Assembly: GCA_964434515.1 (NCBI GenBank)
Contig: CAYSWE010000001.1
Location: 1 to 28,705 of the forward strand
Direction: 5' to 3'
Source of the DNA: an uncultured Phycisphaerales bacterium
GTDB lineage: Bacteria > Planctomycetota > UBA1135 > GCA-002748355
DNA: 28,705 nucleotides
Part shown: positions 1 through 12,003 of the stretch, in pieces
Position numbering within the stretch: position 1 is the first letter of the stretch
Layout: the number at the start of each line of letters is the position of its first letter
Position numbers and translations under genes: made by a program
The notes under the pieces: generated by a model
The model's database searches: none
What the model saw: the letters and a program-made list of their open reading frames with translations, nothing else
What the model was told of the DNA's origin: nothing

Positions 1-2292
1 GTGAAAAAACGCCTCCGCACCGGTGATGTCCTGATACGGTTCGAGCTGCTCGGGTGAGCGCGCAAGGTAGCGAGCCAGGGCCCCGCACTCATCAGCGCCG
101 CGGGGATCGGGGCGGAGGTCGAGCGCCAGGGCCCGGTAGGCGACGAACTCGGCCAACCGGGGCGAGTCTACCTGAATCGTGGTTCGCGTGAGGTGGATTA
201 GGGCGTCTGTTTGGACCCTTCGATCTCGGTAGCCAGTCTCGTCGATTGCCCGCGACACGAGCTCGAACAGCGTGCACAGGTCGGCCGGTGCGGTCGGAAG
301 ACCCTTGGGATCCATGTTGCGCAGCTCGTTCCACGCGCAATCGAATGCCGGTTCGAGCCGAGCCGACGCCGTGATTCGGTACAGCCCGATGCTCGACGCC
401 AGGGAGTCCGGCGCGACGCGAATCGCCGCGCGTTTGCCCTGCAGATCTGCCGCGACCCAGTCTACGACGGCCACAGGGACAGTCGCCGACTCGTGTGGTG
501 TTCCCTCGAGGCTTGCGATCGCGACGCGCGCGGCTGCGAGGTAGTCGCTGCGGCCGGGGGTGGCGGCGGCCGGCGTCGCCTCGAGCTGGCCGAGGTCTTG
601 CAGCGCGAGCCGCACGTTGCCGGCGGTGACATGCCTGCGCAGCGCCAGCAGGAGCACCTCGAAGCGGAGGGCGCGCACGTCGGGATGCAGAGGGTCGACG
701 CGTTCGGCCTCGGTGACCAGCGTGGCGGCCTTCTTGTACGCCTTCTTCCGGACGGCGAGTCGCACTCGAACGAGCCATGGTTCGACGTTCGTTGGATCCT
801 GCGCACACCAACCGACGAGGATGGGCTCGAGGATCTTGTCGCGCCTGCGGGCAGCGTAATCGGACGAGACATGCTGGACGAGTCTGCGAAACCGTTCCGG
901 CGTCGGATGGATCTTGCAGGCGGCATAGCGCAGCGCTGTTTCGACGAGGTCGAACTCAGGCAAGCCTGGCTCCAGTGCGCTCAGGGCTTTGTGCAACGCG
1001 CAGAGCGCGACATGGCAGTGGGCGGCGCGTTCGGTTTCCGGCTCGTCCTCGAGCCAGAACTGGTTGGCGTCCAAGATGTCCTCGAGCTCCTCGCGTGTGT
1101 CTTCCTCGAGGATGGGGCTTCCGGCTAGGTCCAGCGCCAGGATGGAGGTTGCGTGAGCCGCAGTGGGCGCGAGTCGATCCAGGATCAATGCAAGCTCGGC
1201 GGCGTCCAGCTTGCGCAAAGCGGGCGGCCAGGTCGTGGCCGGGCTGAGCAGCTCTCCGATGTCCTTCTCGGTGAGCCAAATGGTCCAGGCGAGGATTCCG
1301 CCCACAGGATCCTCTCGGTCGGAACTCACGGCGGCCAGCCGGTGGAACTCCTGGCCGAAGACCTGAACGAGCTGGTTTACGGCGACGTTCGGATAGGTTG
1401 GGAGTTCGAACAGGTTGGCGAGCGTCCATCGCGCCAGGCGAATCGCCAGGCGGCGGTTGGTCCCGAGGAGGCTCGTGAGCGTGCTTCGCAGGGCGTCGGC
1501 GAAGCGCTTCGCGTCGTCTGCACGCCGGGCGCGGATCAGCTCGCTCACCCGGGAATGGACGGTGGCCGCGGTGCCGAGGATCCTCGATCGCAGTGTGCCG
1601 AGCGCCGGGGTCGGCGGTTGGCTCGTCGTGCTTCCTTGCAGCATCGAGCCGAGCATTACGGCGAGCGGGTGCGGGGCGGTGTCCGCACCGATCCGGTTGA
1701 GAGCGCGCCGCGCTGCGCTGTCGTTGTTGGCGTAGAACGCGTCGATTGCTAGCGCGAGATGGCGCCACGGATCCAGCGGTGCGTCGCGGCCGATGGTCCG
1801 CAGCGCCCGGCGTGACGCGTCCGTGAGTTTGCCGTTCGTGGCCTCGGTGAGCGCCTGGACGACCTTCGTTGCGTCCGGGTCGTCGAGCTGGCGCGGGTCG
1901 GTGAGGTGACGACGAAGCATGTCGGGCGAACATCCGGCCGCGAGTGCGGCGGCCGGGTCGCCGCCGCGAAGCCGCAGGCCAACCTCGACCTCCTTCCACC
2001 GCGACGCGCACTCCGGACACGCGGCCTTGGCTGCGGCCAGCGTCTCCTCGGCTTCACGCTGCATGCCAGCGACAAGGAGGCTCGAAACCCGTGCTTCGTA
2101 GGCGTCGGCCAGGAGCGCTCGTGCGGCATCGCGATGTTCGGCGCCTGCCAGCTTGGTCAGGCGCTTGGCATCCTTGAGGGCGCCCATCGAGCGTCCGCTG
2201 TCGAGCTTCTTGCGCGCCGCCCCGAGCTGGGTTGGTAGGTCGGCCGGAGCGCGCTGGGATTGCTGTCGCTTTTTTGTTCGCTTTTTTGCCAT
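1..2292 (-). CDS. Large helical hypothetical protein with TPR-like segments; partial, 3' end runs off the left edge (at least 764 aa)
   Basis: Manual translation from ATG 2292: MAKKRTKKRQQSQRAPADLPTQLGAARKKL..., open to position 1 (...QDITGAEAFFH). It is absent from the ORF track because it has no stop in the window. TPR-like stretch: WCAQDPTNVEPWLVRVRLAVRKKAYKKAATLVTEAERVDPLHPDVRALR. The + strand ORFs 211..1128 and 1153..1752 are its antisense shadows. Confidence 0.75.
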   Translation of the reverse strand, partial: MAKKRTKKRQQSQRAPADLPTQLGAARKKLDSGRSMGALKDAKRLTKLAGAEHRDAARALLADAYEARVSSLLVAGMQREAEETLAAAKAACPECASRWKEVEVGLRLRGGDPAAALAAGCSPDMLRRHLTDPRQLDDPDATKVVQALTEATNGKLTDASRRALRTIGRDAPLDPWRHLALAIDAFYANNDSAARRALNRIGADTAPHPLAVMLGSMLQGSTTSQPPTPALGTLRSRILGTAATVHSRVSELIRARRADDAKRFADALRSTLTSLLGTNRRLAIRLARWTLANLFELPTYPNVAVNQLVQVFGQEFHRLAAVSSDREDPVGGILAWTIWLTEKDIGELLSPATTWPPALRKLDAAELALILDRLAPTAAHATSILALDLAGSPILEEDTREELEDILDANQFWLEDEPETERAAHCHVALCALHKALSALEPGLPEFDLVETALRYAACKIHPTPERFRRLVQHVSSDYAARRRDKILEPILVGWCAQDPTNVEPWLVRVRLAVRKKAYKKAATLVTEAERVDPLHPDVRALRFEVLLLALRRHVTAGNVRLALQDLGQLEATPAAATPGRSDYLAAARVAIASLEGTPHESATVPVAVVDWVAADLQGKRAAIRVAPDSLASSIGLYRITASARLEPAFDCAWNELRNMDPKGLPTAPADLCTLFELVSRAIDETGYRDRRVQTDALIHLTRTTIQVDSPRLAEFVAYRALALDLRPDPRGADECGALARYLARSPEQLEPYQDITGAEAFFH

Positions 2293-2364: not shown

Positions 2365-3624
2365 TTACCAGTGGTAGTCCCAGATCCGTGCTGGGGCGAT
2401 TCGCTCGTTGCGCGCGCCGCTGGCGAGCTGCAGGACGGCGCCGATGGGGCTCGCGGCGAGGTCGTCGCCGCGGGCATTGAACTGCGTGCCGCCCCAGCGC
2501 TTGCCGACGGCGACGAGGTCGAACTCGACGAATTGCGCGCGCTGGCGATCGAACGCCGCGTGTCCCAGGAGCCGCGTTTCCAGGCCGATTTCTTGTTGCG
2601 TTGGCCGGTCGCTGAAGCCTTGGATCCGCCACCGGCCCTTGCGCACCGCGCGGGTCGCACCGGTCAGCTTCAGGCGCACGATGTCGCCCTCGACCCTGTC
2701 GACGGTGGCGATGAGGCGTGCGGTCTGCACGTCGTGTTCACCAAACGGTGGCACTTGACCGCGCACGTTGTCGAGCAGGTTCAGTCGGACCAGTCGCCGG
2801 ATCAGGGGCTGCGGAACCGCGCGTCGCGCGCCGACCTTGGGTTTGGGCGGGACGAACTGTTTGGCCTCGCTCTTCTTGAACCACGCGTAGTCCAGGTTCC
2901 ACGCGCGCGCCCTCCAGTCGCGCGGACGGCTGGCACGGTCGCCGCTGGTTCGCGGTAGATCGCGGGTCGTGATGCGCAGCACCAGGCCGTCTTCGGGATA
3001 ACCGTCGATCCAGCGCTTGGTCTTGCCGAGCTCGGCGATGCGGGCTGCTGGCAAGTGGCGTTCGCTGGCCTCGAGTTCTTGCCACCGGTGGAGCGCGCGC
3101 CGCAGCATCCGGGCGACGACGTGTGCGTGGCGCGTGTTGCAAGACGCGAGGAACTTGCCGCTCGGCGCGACCGCGTAGATCCCCTGTCGCGTGTTGGACG
3201 GTTGGGTGCGCCCCTTGTAGTGACCTTGCTCGGCGAACTCCTGGAACGTCCGGCACTCGACATCCTTGCCGCGCTGCAGCCGCCCGACCTCGTCGGCTAC
3301 TGGAACGAACTGCTCGAGCAACGCTTGAATCTCGGCTTTGGACCAGACCGACCGCCTGGTCACGACACCGTTGTTTCACACGCAGCCGAGCGGGTGGCCG
3401 TTCATCGCCCAGAGCAGGACGGGCTTGTTGGTTCGTTCGCCCTCGATCAGCCCGTTGCGCAGCTCGCTGCGCCACCCGATCTTCCGGAAGGCGAGTTCCT
3501 CGGCCGTCGGCAGGATCGCCGCGCGCCATTCGGCCAGGCTGGCTTGGGTGAGTTGGGCGCCTTGCCTTGGGGTTGGATTGCCCGTGGAAACTGCGAGTAA
3601 CAGTGCAGCAGTGAGGAGTTGCAT
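2365..3624 (-). CDS. Putative exported selenoprotein: thioredoxin-like N-terminal domain with a C-V-U motif (Sec at codon 83) plus an uncharacterised C-terminal domain; 419 aa
   Basis: Track ORFs 3376..3939 and 2365..3363 are in the same frame, separated only by TGA at 3378-3376. Read-through gives ...KPVLLWAMNGHPLGCV-U-NNGVVTRRSVWSKAEIQALLEQFVPVADEV..., a continuous Trx-like pattern. ATG 3624 gives a hydrophobic leader (MQLLTAALLLAVSTG). A SECIS-like hairpin follows the UGA. The gene ends at TAA 2367-2365. Confidence 0.85.
3341..3361 (-). promoter_or_regulatory. Candidate bacterial SECIS element
   Basis: mRNA UGA-AACAACGGUGUCGU-GACCAG-GC-GGUC-GGU-CUGGUC. GACCAG pairs perfectly with CUGGUC. 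The GGUC apex starts 23 nt after the UGA and resembles the E. coli fdhF SECIS apex (AGGUCU). Confidence 0.75.
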
Positions 3625-3717: not shown

Positions 3718-3757
3718 TTGACGCTCTGTCAAGGGTATAGATGTAACATAGTTGCAT
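3718..3757. promoter_or_regulatory. AT-rich divergent promoter region with two inverted repeats (candidate operators)
   Basis: TTGAC-N5-GTCAA at 3718-3732 and ATGTAAC-N3-GTTGCAT (one mismatch) at 3741-3757. Positions 3721-3780 are 23/60 G+C. The region lies between the divergent selenoprotein and S8 protease genes. Confidence 0.35.
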
Positions 3758-3838
3758 TTCAAGCTATCGTATGTTTCGATGCACCCGCCCTTCGGGGCAC
3801 CTCTCTTCTCGTTAACCACAGACCACAGGAGCAAGATC

Positions 3839-6538
3839 ATGCAAACCTCTCTGCTCGCTTCTCTCTCTCTCGTCGCCGCGTCGGCGGCTCTGTGTGCGCA
3901 AGGCGGATTTCCTGCTGCGCAGCCTCTGGGGGCAGGCATCGCCGATTCACCCTCGATGGCCCAGTCGCCGGTTCACGCCCGCGCACACGGCCTCCGGGGG
4001 GCACTCCCTGGGACCGAGCGCTGGATTGTTCACTTCAAAAAGCGACCGTTCACGCTCGCCGGCTATCGGGCCGAGATGTGGGGGCGGCGTGATCCGAAGC
4101 AGGTAGCCCGAATCGTCGCCGACCTTGAGGCTCGAATGAAGGCGCACCAGAAGGACTTCATCGATGAGGTGGTGTCCCTCCGCGGCGCTGTCGTCTATCA
4201 ATATTGGATCGTCATTGCTTGTTGCATCGATATTCCTGCGCAGCACATCGCAACATTGCGCAACTATCCGAATGTCGATTGGTTGCAGCCAGACGAACTC
4301 GCGACTCCGCAGATCAAGACTGCGACGAATGCGAGGAACCACAATGCCGACGCCCTGCAGGCGCAGGGATTCACTGGGGCCAATGTAGGCCTTGCGATTA
4401 TCGATACTGGTATCGATATCAATACGCATGGCACCGGTCGCATTCATGTAACGTTGTCGAGGCGCGGCAATACCAACCGGAGCCGGATCTGTGTTGCCCG
4501 GCAGATTGGGGCTCAGCCGTTCGACGATGTGCATGGTCACGGCACCGGCGTTACATCCATTGCTGCAGGTTGGCGTTGGCGTACTTCGACCGCGGACAAC
4601 GGTCACGCATTCGACGCCGCGATTGCTGGATACTCGATCGCGAACGCGACGAATGGAAACTCGGCATTGTCGACCATGGCGGCAGCCTATAACCGGGTTG
4701 CGGCGGACGCTGCCAGGTGTCGCATTGTCGCGACAAACCTGTCCTACTCTGGTAGTGCGAACCCCATGTCCGTGGAGCAAAAGGCCATGGACAGTCTCGC
4801 GCTCAACGCTGATATCGTCAACTGCACTGCGGCGGGGAACTTTGGTTCGAACGTCTCGCGGAGCCACGCCAACATCAACGGGCTCTCCGTGGCAGCGGTG
4901 AGCGAGAATTCGAAGACCTTGGCCGGGTTCTCGTCGCGTGGCATGCAAGGAGGTCGCTATTTCCCGAACATCGCAGCGAACGGGGTCTCGACGAACATGG
5001 CGCGTCGCGACAACGAGACGGTCGACTGGGTTGCCTCCGGAACTTCGATGGCGTCGCCGCAGATGTGCGGCGCGGTCACGCTGATTCGCGGTATCAATCG
5101 TGCCATGCGGGCGGACGAGACGCGCGCAGTCATGCTTGCGTCGACGTTCGCCAGTCCGGGCACGGGAAGCACGATCAAGGTTCTTGGTCCCGGGGCTGGT
5201 TATCTCAAGGACGACGGTGCGCGTGACATCGCGCGCGTGGCCGCGAGACACGGGAGAGCGACGTTGCTTGGGACGACTCGTAGCTTTACGCGCCGAGTCG
5301 TGGTTCGTGTTGGGCAGAGGCTGCAATGCGCGATTGCGTGGAACCGGCACAACGTGAACTCGACGAACTGGTCCAACCTAGACCTCCGCTTGAAGCGCGG
5401 CTCCTCGACCCTCGTCAACTCGAACTCGTCGCTGAACACCGAGGAGTTCGTTCGTTACACGGCGACACGCAACGAGACACTGACCCTTGAGGTCACCTTG
5501 GTCACTCTTGGGGCGGGCGCAAAGAGTCAAGCGTTTGGCTGGGCCTGCTCGCTGTCTACGGGCAGTGCGTCGCTGCCGGGTCGCTACGTGCTCTACGGTC
5601 GCGCATGTCCGGGGTCCCGAACGATCCCGGCATTCCACAACGTGCTTCCGCGGGCCTATCGGACGAAGATGGGGCAGTCAGCCAACACATTCCCGCACGC
5701 GCGGCGCATGCGCTATCAGCAGATATTCCTTGGCTCGGAGATCGGAGTGTCGCAAGTTTGGAGGCAGCTTTGCTTGCGACGTGACGAACGATTTGGCGGT
5801 CCCGCACAACTCCAACGGATTCAGGTGCATCTTGGCCAGTCCACGCGTTCGCCGGCCACGCTTGGCAGAGGGTTCTTGGCCAACTATTCGGGTGCGCGTC
5901 GCCTCGTATTCAGCGGAAACCTCAATCTTCCCAATCGCACTGGCGGGGGAGGGACGCGCTCGTTCGACGTGTGCTTCCGGTTCCAGACGCCGTATGTCTG
6001 GATTCGCAATGGGCGGAACTTGATCGTGGAAATGGTCAATACGAGCCCGACATCCCGGTCGCACTACGAGGATTTTTGTGTAGGGCGGGACGCAACGACA
6101 GCGCGTGCGTTTTCGTTCAATCCGCTGTCGACGACGGCGCAGAGTGTCTATCGCAATCAGGGACTTGTCATGAGCCTGGGGCGCCCGGCACGCAGGATTG
6201 CGCCATTCCTCTCGCATAGCGGTGTGCCGGTCGTCGGGCGCTCCTTCCGGGTCTTTTTGTCCAATGCTCGGGCGCGGACCCGGGCGTATCTGATCCAAGG
6301 GATGCGCACGTCACGTCCGGTTTCGTTAGCCCCGGGTTGTAGGCTGTACGCGACAGTGCAGTCGATTGTCAGTCGAGCCACGACGAGCAGCGGTGGTTTC
6401 GCTGCCGCTACGATTTCGATTCCCAATGACCGATCTCTCATCGGTCGGAAGCTAGCACATCAATGGTGGGTCCGCGATTTCGTGAACCGTCGAGGTTATG
6501 TGTTTACCAACGGCGGCGAAGGCCTGATCGGCGGTTGA
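3839..6538 (+). CDS. Secreted subtilisin-like serine protease (peptidase S8) with multi-domain C-terminal extension; 899 aa
   Basis: Catalytic triad motifs AIIDTGID, HGHGTGVTSIAAG and ASGTSMASP, plus oxyanion AAGN. Signal peptide MQTSLLASLSLVAASAALCA. AGGAG lies upstream of ATG 3839, which is preferred to the track start at 3752. Confidence 0.93.
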   Translation: MQTSLLASLSLVAASAALCAQGGFPAAQPLGAGIADSPSMAQSPVHARAHGLRGALPGTERWIVHFKKRPFTLAGYRAEMWGRRDPKQVARIVADLEARMKAHQKDFIDEVVSLRGAVVYQYWIVIACCIDIPAQHIATLRNYPNVDWLQPDELATPQIKTATNARNHNADALQAQGFTGANVGLAIIDTGIDINTHGTGRIHVTLSRRGNTNRSRICVARQIGAQPFDDVHGHGTGVTSIAAGWRWRTSTADNGHAFDAAIAGYSIANATNGNSALSTMAAAYNRVAADAARCRIVATNLSYSGSANPMSVEQKAMDSLALNADIVNCTAAGNFGSNVSRSHANINGLSVAAVSENSKTLAGFSSRGMQGGRYFPNIAANGVSTNMARRDNETVDWVASGTSMASPQMCGAVTLIRGINRAMRADETRAVMLASTFASPGTGSTIKVLGPGAGYLKDDGARDIARVAARHGRATLLGTTRSFTRRVVVRVGQRLQCAIAWNRHNVNSTNWSNLDLRLKRGSSTLVNSNSSLNTEEFVRYTATRNETLTLEVTLVTLGAGAKSQAFGWACSLSTGSASLPGRYVLYGRACPGSRTIPAFHNVLPRAYRTKMGQSANTFPHARRMRYQQIFLGSEIGVSQVWRQLCLRRDERFGGPAQLQRIQVHLGQSTRSPATLGRGFLANYSGARRLVFSGNLNLPNRTGGGGTRSFDVCFRFQTPYVWIRNGRNLIVEMVNTSPTSRSHYEDFCVGRDATTARAFSFNPLSTTAQSVYRNQGLVMSLGRPARRIAPFLSHSGVPVVGRSFRVFLSNARARTRAYLIQGMRTSRPVSLAPGCRLYATVQSIVSRATTSSGGFAAATISIPNDRSLIGRKLAHQWWVRDFVNRRGYVFTNGGEGLIGG

Positions 6539-9379: not shown

Positions 9380-10480
9380 ATGGTTCGAAAGATCGACAGA
9401 GACCACAGTCGCTTCCGGCAGATCGTTCGGGGAAAGATCAAGCAGGACCTGAAGAAGTTCGTCAGCTCCGGCGAGCTGATCGGCAAGCAGGGCGGCAAAT
9501 ACGTGTCGATCCCGATCCCGCAGATCAACCTGCCGCGATTTCGTTTTGGGCAGAACCCGCAGGGCGGCGTCGGCCAGGGTGAGGGCAACGAGGGAGACCC
9601 TGTCGAGGGTATGGGAGAGGGCGAGGGCCAGGCCGGCGAGGACCCGGGGCAGCACGTCTTGGAGGTCGACGTCAGCCTCGAGGACCTGGCGGCGATTCTC
9701 GGCGAGGAACTCGAGCTTCCAAACATCGAGCCCAAGGGGAAGAAGGTCATCAGCCAGGCCGGCGGCTCGTGGAAGGGCGTGCGCCGCGTTGGGCCCGAGA
9801 GCCTGCGCCACTTCAAGCGCACGTATCGCGAGGCGCTGAAGCGGCAGATCGCCGCCGGACTCTACGATCCGGACAACCCTGCGATCATTCCGATCCGCGG
9901 CGACAAGCGCTTCAAGTCGCGCAAGGAGACGGTGCACCCGCAGGCCAATGCCGCCATCATCTACATGATGGATGTGTCGGGCAGCATGGGGCGTGAGCAG
10001 AAGGAGATCGTGCGCATCGAGGCGTTCTGGATCGATACCTGGCTGCGTTCGCAGTACAAGAACATAGAAGTGCAGTACATCGTGCATGACGCGGTTGCTC
10101 ATCTCGTCGACCAGCACACGTTTTTTCATCTGCGCGAGTCTGGTGGAACCAAGATCTCCTCGGCCTACGAACTCTGTCTGCAGCTGATGGGGGACCGCTA
10201 TCCGGCCGACGAGTGGAACCTGTATCCATTCCATTTTTCCGACGGCGACAACTGGTCGACGCGCGACACCGAGCATTGCGTGAGCCTGCTGCGCGACCAG
10301 ATCCTCCCGGTGAGCAATCAGTTCTGCTATGGGCAGGTGAAGAGCGCATACGGCTCTGGCCAGTTCAAGAAGGACCTGGACGCCGCGCTCGGTGACGAGC
10401 AGCGGCTCGTCACGTCCGACATTCTGGATCGTGATGGGATCCTGGATTCCATCAAGTCGTTCCTCGGCAAGGGGCGCTGA
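9380..10480 (+). CDS. yeaH: DUF444 family (YeaH/YhbH) vWA-type protein
   Basis: [14 protein letters not shown] start, Gly-rich [10 protein letters not shown] region, [15 protein letters not shown]-like [19 protein letters not shown] and [16 protein letters not shown] overlap with the next gene. Confidence 0.93.
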
Positions 10481-12003
10481 TGGCCAACCTGACTCCGGAA
10501 CTCGCAGCGATTCACGAGGAAGTCAAGGCGCTGGCGAAACAGTATGGCCTCGACACCTTCGAGACGATCTTCGAACTGATCGATTCCGATCAGATGAATA
10601 TGATCGCCGCTTATGGCGGCTTCCCGACGCGCTATCCGCATTGGCGTTTCGGTATGGAGTACGAGCAGCTTGCCAAGAGCTACGAATACGGTCTTTCCAA
10701 GATCTACGAGCTCGTGATCAACAACGACCCGTGCTACGCCTATCTCATGCGCTCGAACGGGCTGACCGACCAGAAGCTCGTGATGGCGCACGTCTATGGG
10801 CATTGCGACTTCTTCAAGAACAACTATTGGTTCTCGAAGACCAATCGAAAGATGATGGACGCGATGGCCAACCACGGCACGCGGATTCGCGCCTACATGG
10901 ATCGACACGGCGTGGCCGAGGTCGAAGACTTTATCGACCGCGTGCACAGTCTCGACAACCTCATCGATCCACACAGTCCGTTCATCCAGCGAGAAGGCCA
11001 CGCGGCGGCCGCCGAGGAAGCGCAGTCCGAAGTGTCGCGCATGGCCGCCAAGGACTACATGGATCGCTACATCAACCCGCCGGAGTTTCTCGAGGCGCAG
11101 CAGCGTCAGCTCGACGAGGAACACGAGCGCAGCCTGGGCTTTCCGGCCGAACCGGCTCGCGATGTCCTCCAGTTCATGCTCGAGTACGCGCCGCTGCAAC
11201 GCTGGCAACAGGACGTGCTCGCGATGCTACGCGAGGAGGCCTACTACTTCGTGCCGCAGGCGATGACCAAGATCATGAACGAGGGCTGGGCCGTCTACTG
11301 GCATTCGACGATGATGTGCAATCACCTGGTCACCGCCGACGAGGTCGTGATCTATTGCGACCATCACTCGGGAACGCTCGCGACACAGCCGGGGCGCGTC
11401 AATCCCTACAAGCTCGGCGTCGAGTTGTTCCGCGACATCGAGCATCGCTGGAACCGTGGCAAGTTTGGCCTCGACTATCAGCGGATCGAGGACGCTCATG
11501 ACCGCCGCAGGTTCGACAACGGCGCTGGACTCGGGCGCGAGAAGATCTTCGCCGTGCGCAAGTCGCATAACGACGTGACGTTCATCGACGAGTTTCTCAA
11601 TGCCGAGTTCGCCGAAGACCAGAAGCTCTTCGTCTATGGTTTTAACCAGCGCACCGGCCAGTATGAGATCGTTGACCGCGACTGGACCAAGGTCAAACAG
11701 CAGCTGCTCTGGTCACTCACAAACTTTGGCCAGCCAAGGATCAGCGTCGTCGACGCCAACTACCAGAATCGGGGCGAACTCTACCTCTATCACGACTGGG
11801 CCGGAGTCGACCTGCAGTTCGAGGAGGCGGCGCAGACCCTACGAGCTCTGCACGCGATGTGGACCCGCCCTGTGCACCTAGAGACGCGCGAGGAAGGCAA
11901 CGGTCGACTGCTGAGCTTCGATGGCGAAGAGGTCCAGTTCCGGGAGCTGGCACCGGCTGCGGATGCGGCACTCGTCGTGGGGCAGGACTCGGACGAGGGC
12001 TGA
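10480..12003 (+). CDS. spoVR: SpoVR/YcgB family protein
   Basis: GGFPTRYPHWRFG, KIYELVINNDPCYAYL, HVYGHCDFFKNN, TKIMNEGWA, NPYKLG and DVTFIDEFL. Translationally coupled to the DUF444 gene. Confidence 0.93.
   Translation: MANLTPELAAIHEEVKALAKQYGLDTFETIFELIDSDQMNMIAAYGGFPTRYPHWRFGMEYEQLAKSYEYGLSKIYELVINNDPCYAYLMRSNGLTDQKLVMAHVYGHCDFFKNNYWFSKTNRKMMDAMANHGTRIRAYMDRHGVAEVEDFIDRVHSLDNLIDPHSPFIQREGHAAAAEEAQSEVSRMAAKDYMDRYINPPEFLEAQQRQLDEEHERSLGFPAEPARDVLQFMLEYAPLQRWQQDVLAMLREEAYYFVPQAMTKIMNEGWAVYWHSTMMCNHLVTADEVVIYCDHHSGTLATQPGRVNPYKLGVELFRDIEHRWNRGKFGLDYQRIEDAHDRRRFDNGAGLGREKIFAVRKSHNDVTFIDEFLNAEFAEDQKLFVYGFNQRTGQYEIVDRDWTKVKQQLLWSLTNFGQPRISVVDANYQNRGELYLYHDWAGVDLQFEEAAQTLRALHAMWTRPVHLETREEGNGRLLSFDGEEVQFRELAPAADAALVVGQDSDEG

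Follow-up and report, generated by a model that had tools for sequence, protein, structure and literature searches.

A stretch of 28,705 nucleotides (nt) of an uncultured Phycisphaerales bacterium (contig CAYSWE010000001.1 of assembly GCA_964434515.1), the whole of which is called the window here, carries on its minus strand a gene split by one in-frame TGA. With a probability of roughly 0.88, we consider it to be a real selenocysteine (Sec)-encoding gene for a thioredoxin-fold protein of an uncatalogued family. That the gene encodes Sec is very probable from comparative sequence data, and the case for Sec rests mainly on codon conservation; that the product is a selenol oxidoreductase has slightly better than even odds. 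Recoding follows the ordinary bacterial route, and what is new is the family, its architecture of a Thioredoxin_7-like domain followed by a β-rich domain, and the variability of its redox site.

The minus-strand frame has an ATG start at 3624-3622 and a TAA stop at 2367-2365, and the sole in-frame stop within it is the TGA at 3378-3376, which comes directly after TGC (Cys81, 3384-3382) and GTG (Val82). The codons AAC AAC GGT GTC GTG follow, and the frame continues as N-N-G-V-V-T-R-R-S-V-W, so that 82 codons lie upstream and 336 codons downstream of the TGA. Under genetic code table 11, the same DNA is read as an 82-codon stub and a 332-codon open reading frame (ORF) from a GTG five codons past the TGA. 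An alternative in-frame GTG start at 3657-3655 would give the signal peptide a charged n-region. A previous interpretation made from the letters alone (the sequence-only reading) had described two hypothetical ORFs joined by a Sec UGA; they form a single gene whose frame is interrupted only by this TGA, and both the position of the TGA right after Cys-Val and the five in-frame codons behind it are present as described. It had also expected annotation pipelines to split such a gene, and public gene calls do consist of C-terminal fragments of 310-335 amino acids (aa) and stubs of 70-120 aa. Features of the gene are listed in Table 1.

Table 1. Positions of the gene, its RNA hairpin and its predicted protein segments in the 28,705-nt window.
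Feature	Positions	Strand	Basis
Selenoprotein gene, single	2365..3624	minus	419 codons including Sec83; frame reading, collinear homologues that share the TGA codon, compact two-domain model
Signal-peptide-like N-terminus, residues 1-22, hydrophobic core LLTAALLLAV	3559..3624	minus	Sequence reading; low predicted local distance difference test (pLDDT) values at residues 1-20
Thioredoxin-fold domain, Thioredoxin_7/AGR2-like, residues ~28-200	3025..3543	minus	AlphaFold2, Foldseek, hhalign
Redox motif Cys81-Val82-Sec83	3376..3384	minus	Sec codon TGA 3376-3378; TGA conserved in homologues, Cys at the column in others
Hairpin like a bacterial Sec insertion sequence (bSECIS)	3341..3361	minus	8-bp stem, loop GGUCG, loop start 22 nt after the UGA, -12.8 kcal/mol
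β-rich C-terminal domain, residues 205-419	2368..3012	minus	Conservation; pLDDT 93.1 when folded alone

From species-representative genomes, 26 related loci were taken, 25 of which cover the TGA site, and all of these 25, from four phyla, have TGA in frame at the identical aligned codon, which goes well beyond chance. Records with the aligned TGA belong to Planctomycetota, Verrucomicrobiales, Chloroflexota and Armatimonadaceae. The flanks read WAMNG(H/N)PL(G/A)C(T/V)-TGA-NNGV in Planctomycetota, Chloroflexota, Thermomicrobiales, Thermoflexus and Armatimonadaceae, and PLCN(T/V)-TGA-GNGV, which is C-x-x-U, in Verrucomicrobiales. Protein conservation extends to both sides of the TGA, with 13 of 78 alignment columns invariant.

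When the read-through product was compared with 5.8 billion proteins, 738 relatives were found, nearly all of which are 310-335 aa long, cover 75-79% of the query, are labelled hypothetical and have no Pfam domain; this span of the query indicates that only the downstream piece gets called. A profile of the N-terminal part (78 residues around the site) detected 1,782 cluster representatives at 50% identity, 880 of them at E <= 1e-10, and among the best 150 of the 1,782 representatives, 124 are stubs that end in GCT, ACT, GCV or CNT just before the Sec codon. By a six-frame scan of 401 Planctomycetota genomes, the family was found in 128, often in 2-4 copies, and 137 of 150 among the matches listed have exactly one TGA and no other stop; several of the carrier genomes consist of 1-7 contigs. 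Re-reading of 44 loci from this phylum scan gave TGA at the site in every Sec-form copy. The family is sporadic in Chloroflexota, being present in 5 of 201 genomes, each with one TGA.

Several of the checks that the sequence-only reading had proposed are answered by these data. Homologues keep TGA or Cys at the aligned codon with a conserved frame, and the stop is always TGA, never TAA or TAG, in more than 100 genomes of four phyla. The two halves, whose occurrence as unlinked genes had been named as a possible refutation, are always linked in homologues, and a sequencing error is excluded because the same TGA recurs in more than 100 independent assemblies. Paralogues lie close together or in tandem on one contig in some genomes (5261-6409 and 10103-11278 of G320:C321, 8991-10142 and 10759-11868 of G221:C37, 50037-52212 of G108:C42), and in some of these cases one copy is a Sec form while the other no longer has a redox residue.

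In homologues that are full-length and free of an internal stop, Cys occupies the Sec column, in the forms S-T-C (P0125), T-T-C (P0106) and C-T-C (P0154, P0198 and P0133), and Cys stands there also in P0151, P0211, P0250, L087 and L088. This pairing of presumed Sec with Cys at one column is the classic pattern. Trp, Arg or Gly occurs rarely at the site, and each of them is one base from TGA. In the full-length homologue P0006 (L103:1501-2715), TGG (Trp) replaces the Sec TGA in a single read-assembly contig, which reflects a genuine point mutation that inactivates the site or else a mistake in assembly; the gene after it encodes an O-methyltransferase. Ala, or no redox residue at all, is present at the site in a few members (P0124, P0190, P0266, P0249, P0145, L089 and L090).

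The C-x-U motif, by which the sequence-only reading had characterised the protein, is the common form of the site, but it does not define the site. Sec forms that have no Cys at position -2 are L074, L077 (G-H-T-U), L078 (G-L-T-U), L065 (A-A-G-U) and L092 (P-C-A-V-V-U), and a vicinal selenenylsulfide can therefore not be universal in the family. Since the Cys at -2 is variable, the Sec/Cys position is the constant element and the neighbouring Cys an optional partner.

The genome of the window is available as an assembly of 603 contigs with 80.6% completeness, in which 32 tRNA genes were detected. As to the genes selA, selB, selC and selD, for which a check had been suggested, selA (444 bits), selB (315 bits) and selD (325 bits) are present, all above cut-offs, whereas selC was not found in this incomplete assembly. 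The selD gene has its own in-frame TGA, corresponding to a Sec-containing SelD, and is adjacent to selA on a short contig (G000:C400:1068-3391). In five of five better-assembled carrier genomes one tRNA-Sec each was found (72-78 bits); in the relative G191, tRNA-Sec lies about 4 kb from selA. The selA gene is present in 61 of 61 genomes of the order and in all five carriers from other phyla, and co-occurrence with selA is uninformative within the order because all 61 genomes have it. TGA is the commonest terminator in the window's genome, ending 1,176 of 2,248 long ORFs; the genetic code is therefore standard, and an alternative code was rejected. Two further selenoproteins in this genome, of VPGUxxT type 2 and the Trx7/PDZ family, are positive controls for two things, the use of Sec and the ability of NCBIfam to recognise catalogued families.

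A SECIS-like hairpin, which the sequence-only reading had claimed downstream of the TGA, does exist (3361-3341), with stem strands GACCAGGC and GUCUGGUC around the apical loop GGUCG. According to the bSECIS model (PMC13188914), the loop has 3-9 nt with G in the first two loop positions, the stem 4-16 bp, the spacing is 16-37 nt and the minimum free energy is -7.5 kcal/mol or lower; the window hairpin agrees with all four constraints as stated there. A hairpin of the strict model is found at 28 of 63 Sec sites, compared with 11.6% of control codons in the same genes, and the segment from +10 to +44 is on average more stable by one standard deviation than same-phase windows (mean z = -1.0); both figures overstate the significance because related sequences are not independent. 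A weakness of the strict filter is that just one of the three known selenoprotein genes of the window's genome passes it. An Rfam scan gave nothing relevant, with one sub-threshold match to a small RNA (25.7 bits) on the opposite strand. As judged from its sequence, the hairpin is compatible with a SECIS, and covariation does not prove it.

AlphaFold2, with an alignment of 48 sequences, gave one compact two-domain model (pLDDT 92.4, predicted template modelling score 0.90). The predicted elements of the N-terminal domain are β1 (69-74), Sec83, α1 (84-92), β2 (107-112), β3 (148-152), β4 (158-162) and α3 (167-183), and Sec83 is placed between β1 and the N-terminus of α1, the canonical redox position. 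The predicted model contains the β-α-β-α-β-β-α core of a thioredoxin fold, in which the N-terminal end of helix α1 bears the reactive residue. The top Foldseek matches of this domain in the Protein Data Bank (PDB) are AGR2 and AGR3, with probabilities of 0.95-0.99 and template modelling (TM) scores, TM(target), of 0.51-0.65. The thioredoxin-like redox site claimed from the letters is backed by the structure prediction and its Foldseek matches.

In the predicted model, the N-terminal domain packs rigidly against the C-terminal domain, which is built of long antiparallel strands and has the conserved motifs RDLPR, WNxDxAWF, DNVRGQ and GxRWGGTQxNxRxDD. Polar residues that are invariant in the family (Q147, Y150, D222, N243, D245, E253, R277 and R376) suggest a defined site. 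Sequence searches of the C-terminal domain against Pfam, NCBIfam and PDB gave no match, and Foldseek searches with the whole model and with the domain alone gave no credible PDB match for it (best probability 0.30, TM score up to 0.36). The candidates at this level, namely an Ail/OmpA-like barrel, LmcA and the β-barrel of CCS/SOD (probability up to 0.30, TM score up to 0.36), are not read as homology. The sequence-only reading had announced an unknown C-terminal domain of about 250 aa; the domain indeed has no recognisable relative, but its size is about 215 aa because the thioredoxin-like domain reaches approximately residue 200.

A catalogue from 2026 (PMC13188914) comprises 119 prokaryotic selenoprotein families, nearly all with a Pfam, NCBIfam or Conserved Domain Database (CDD) identifier. 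We scanned the window protein and 48 members against Pfam-A and NCBIfam 20.0, and the window protein also against PDB sequences. For the window protein and the 48 members, no Pfam-A or NCBIfam family was above threshold, no PDB sequence matched the window protein, and none of the 119 catalogued families fits, so far as sequence models can test this; to that extent the family appears to be uncatalogued. In full-text literature on selenoproteins in Planctomycetes/Planctomycetota, no description of the family was found. Table S9 of PMC4807772 lists an unnamed hypothetical Sec candidate from a planctomycete whose closest match has Cys, and which could be of the same family or of another.

The sole catalogued family with a signal from hidden Markov models (HMMs) is VPGUxxT (NF041382/NF041383, cut-offs 350/275 bits), which gave 22.6 bits for a member from Chloroflexota against the cut-off of 275 and no match to the window protein itself. 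The window's genome has a true VPGUxxT type 2 protein (G000:C424:1579-2358; L095:1417-2298, plus strand; 310 bits against 275) with the motif IPG-U-STC, a signal peptide, a match to Pfam Thioredoxin_7 and one in-frame TGA. Aligned with it by hhalign, the family profile gave a probability of 68.5% and an E-value of 4.6e-5 over 76 columns, and the Sec of the family falls on the second Cys of the VPGUxxT motif U-S-T-C, not on the VPGUxxT Sec. VPGUxxT types 1 and 2 (annotated as "hypothetical protein OS_HP5") resemble the window family in being exported Thioredoxin_7-type proteins with Sec in the β1-α1 redox loop and in an N-terminal helix-W-helix-KP(I/V)LL layout. The motif is, however, U-x-x-C/T there and C-x-U here (G-C-V-U-N-N-G in the window protein), the active-site loop is four residues longer in the window family, and the C-terminal halves are unrelated.

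A Trx7/PDZ (seleno)protein is also encoded in the window's genome (G000:C78; L099:505-1821, minus strand; 395 bits against NF041199). It has the motif C-V-P-U-E-N-C and a signal peptide, and its post-UGA hairpin GACGGGC/AGUUG/GUCCGUC, with a spacing of 25 nt, fits the bSECIS model. This family shares with the window family an exported Thioredoxin_7-like domain fused to a second domain, and its C-x-x-U also occurs in verrucomicrobial members of the window family; the second domain is a PDZ domain there, in contrast to the β-rich unrecognised domain here, and the window family gave no HMM match to NF041199 (cut-off 300 bits). The C-x-U spacing of the redox motif is common to the PF13192 CxU families, and no match was found to PF13192 or to the NCBIfam CxU models (rhodanese form 3, UshA-like and ferredoxin-thioredoxin reductase). 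The window family thus fails membership in VPGUxxT, Trx7/PDZ and PF13192 CxU, yet it works alike, with a thioredoxin fold and Sec in the redox loop. AGR2 and AGR3 of the protein disulfide isomerase (PDI) family (PDB 2lns, 9i3u and 3ph9) are thioredoxin folds of the secretory pathway with a single reactive Cys (CxxS), which resembles the one-Sec variants of the window family, whereas they are eukaryotic, single-domain and without Sec. With identities of 12-18% and Foldseek E-values of 0.016-0.15, this likeness, based on a predicted model, would be one at the fold level and is not demonstrated homology.

As read from sequence, signal peptides are clear in the Planctomycetota and Verrucomicrobiales members and absent from the Chloroflexota and Armatimonadota ones. 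In three multidomain homologues, a Ser/Thr kinase is followed by a transmembrane helix and then by the thioredoxin-like plus β-rich module, whose site reads C-x-C or C-V-A or lacks Cys. Carriers of the kinase type are P0136, P0190, P0145 and L086 (G320:C321:9950-11430), one of them with Kelch repeats. Ser/Thr kinases appear to have recruited the module as an outer sensor domain. The order of kinase, transmembrane helix and module supports an extracytoplasmic location and makes a sensing role the main functional rival. The export proposed by the sequence-only reading accordingly holds for members from Planctomycetota and Verrucomicrobiales and for the kinase fusions, where the module comes after the transmembrane helix, but not for those from Chloroflexota and Armatimonadota.

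The data directly show the conserved, continuous frame with its conserved TGA, the Cys homologues, the Sec machinery, a hairpin that agrees with the bSECIS model, the predicted fold and the lack of a Pfam or NCBIfam model. From these we infer how Sec would be inserted, how the protein would be exported, what its redox chemistry would be and what the C-terminal domain would do. The minus strand from 3624 (or 3657) to 2365 would be one gene whose UGA at 3378-3376 is read as Sec, with SelA, SelB, SelD and tRNA-Sec decoding it, probably aided by the hairpin at 3361-3341. The two-domain product would be exported via the general secretory (Sec) pathway in this organism, its N-terminal domain carrying Sec83 at the N-terminal end of α1 and being packed on the C-terminal domain. 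It may then act as a selenol-based oxidoreductase on an extracytoplasmic substrate, for which Sec would be the reactive residue that cannot be spared, Cys81 a frequent but non-essential partner able to form a selenenylsulfide with it, and the C-terminal domain the supplier of substrate binding.

Several results weigh against this reading. For Sec decoding, neither Rfam RF01852 nor ARAGORN, even when settings were relaxed, detected tRNA-Sec in the 80.6%-complete assembly. For the hairpin, a fixed-register 8-bp helix was examined in 46 sequences from Planctomycetota, Verrucomicrobiales and Armatimonadaceae, and its 66% pairing equals that of shuffled columns and of a control slid by +1, with no covariation; RNAalifold gave no consensus structure, and the Chloroflexota hairpins are no more stable than the gene background. 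The helix register shifts with the Arg codon (AGR versus CGN), and a structure-aware alignment is therefore needed for covariation. For the fold, the best Foldseek E-value of the thioredoxin domain is weak (0.016), and no thioredoxin-superfamily Pfam model, e.g. Thioredoxin_7 (PF13899), matches the window protein or the 48 aligned members. For the function, P0266, P0249, P0145, L089 and L090 have neither Sec nor Cys at the site, and these members together with the kinase-fused copies indicate that the scaffold can work without redox chemistry. Finally, no conserved neighbour gene in the loci of Planctomycetota and Verrucomicrobiales points to a substrate or reductant.

It is extremely unlikely that the TGA is a true stop, whether it separates a gene for an 82-aa stub from one for a 332-aa protein begun at the internal GTG or marks a decaying pseudogene. 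Although public pipelines call two pieces and a GTG lies 5 codons past the TGA, this explanation is already contradicted by the comparative data, since the codon is always TGA in the genomes covered above, both halves are conserved at the protein level and never separated, Cys homologues read straight through the site, and the stub would end in the β1-α1 loop of a single predicted domain. We give just as little credence to a TGA read as Trp, Gly or Cys through an alternative code or near-cognate suppression. It could account for the W, G or R at the site in a few database homologues and for P0006, which is truly TGG; W, R, G and C are, however, each one base from TGA, as expected for occasional point replacement, and the position is a classic Sec/Cys redox site. 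TGA is moreover the commonest terminator of long ORFs in the window's genome and ends many family members' own genes, and selA is present in every carrier genome tested.

A real selenoprotein that is not an enzyme is the alternative that we take most seriously, while still holding it to be unlikely. The protein would then be an extracytoplasmic sensing or binding module, in which Sec (or Cys) senses the redox state or binds a metal, a chalcogen or a small ligand, and where it stands alone it would serve as a chaperone or binding protein. Such a role would suit the three independent fusions to Ser/Thr kinases, with CxC, C-V-A or no Cys, the complete loss of Sec/Cys in some stand-alone members, the closest folds AGR2 and AGR3, which are non-catalytic or weakly catalytic binders of the PDI family, and the weak matches of the C-terminal domain to β-barrel ligand binders, all of low probability. 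The selenol oxidoreductase is favoured over it by the retention of costly Sec in by far most of the members from four phyla, a pattern typical of catalytic redox sites, and by the invariant polar residues listed above, which resemble an active site; the kinase fusions are, in addition, a small minority. A further, improbable possibility, raised by the sequence-only reading from the residue spacing, is kinship between this bacterial thioredoxin-like domain and the redox domain of eukaryotic SELENON. The sequence flanking SCUG in SELENON has a similar U..G...R..V spacing after Sec. In the window protein the spacing is formed by U83, G86, R90 and V93, of which G86 and R90 are invariant in the family, and both proteins are thioredoxin-like selenoproteins with an extracytoplasmic or luminal location. 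SCUG lies in the luminal thioredoxin-like region of SELENON, and the disease mutation p.Arg466Gln lies four residues after Sec462 (PMC12839072). In a comparison by motif and architecture only, however, Cys is adjacent to Sec in SCUG and at -2 in the GCVU of the window protein, the EF-hand and the N-terminal transmembrane anchor of SELENON are both lacking in the window protein, and the domain order differs, SELENON being mostly N-terminal to its Sec whereas the extra domain of the window protein is C-terminal. The measurable relatives are instead of the Thioredoxin_7 type, i.e., AGR2/AGR3 by fold and VPGUxxT by profile.

Beyond the oxidoreductase reading, we tentatively propose, at rather less than even odds, that the gene founds a large family absent from the catalogues, with no fewer than 1,782 clusters at 50% identity and members in roughly one in three of the sampled Planctomycetota genomes. 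The Sec-bearing Thioredoxin_7-like domain of this family and its β-domain, which has no counterpart among solved structures, would together make up a selenol-based module in the periplasm, for catalysis or for sensing, whose activity would be new and other than generic disulfide exchange and which Ser/Thr kinases would have recruited as an outer sensor. If this is true, the kinase-recruited module would be a Sec-based extracytoplasmic redox-sensing unit. Gene callers consistently break the members of the 1,782 clusters into a stub and a fragment that are called hypothetical; a single HMM combined with a Sec-aware rule would mend thousands of gene models, and the corrected models would enlarge the selenoproteomes of Planctomycetota, Verrucomicrobiota and Chloroflexota. 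Variation at the site is unusually clean (C-x-U, C-x-x-U, x-x-U, C-x-C, x-x-C and no redox residue), and the family is therefore a good system for studying what Sec gains over Cys outside the cytoplasm. The C-terminal domain is of interest in being confidently predicted, yet without a recognisable relative, and its place in the outer module of Ser/Thr kinases is a hint that it may sense a ligand or the redox state, a role that is testable in cultivable planctomycetes.

Gene neighbourhoods provide some minor observations. In nine Chloroflexota loci, including those at L030:4254-4988 and L037:4188-4877, a histidine phosphatase (His_Phos_1) gene comes directly after the selenoprotein gene and abuts it in some of them. 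The arrangement looks like an operon, is little informative, and was not seen in Planctomycetota or Verrucomicrobiales. In the window, an ORF of at least 764 aa (1-2292, minus strand) starts 70 nt after the stop of the selenoprotein gene and runs off the window; it has a Lys/Arg-rich N-terminus and no Pfam match, and may be co-transcribed with the selenoprotein gene. On the other side, a divergent ORF of 928 aa (3752-6538, plus strand) matches Peptidase_S8 (subtilase) with 73.8 bits.

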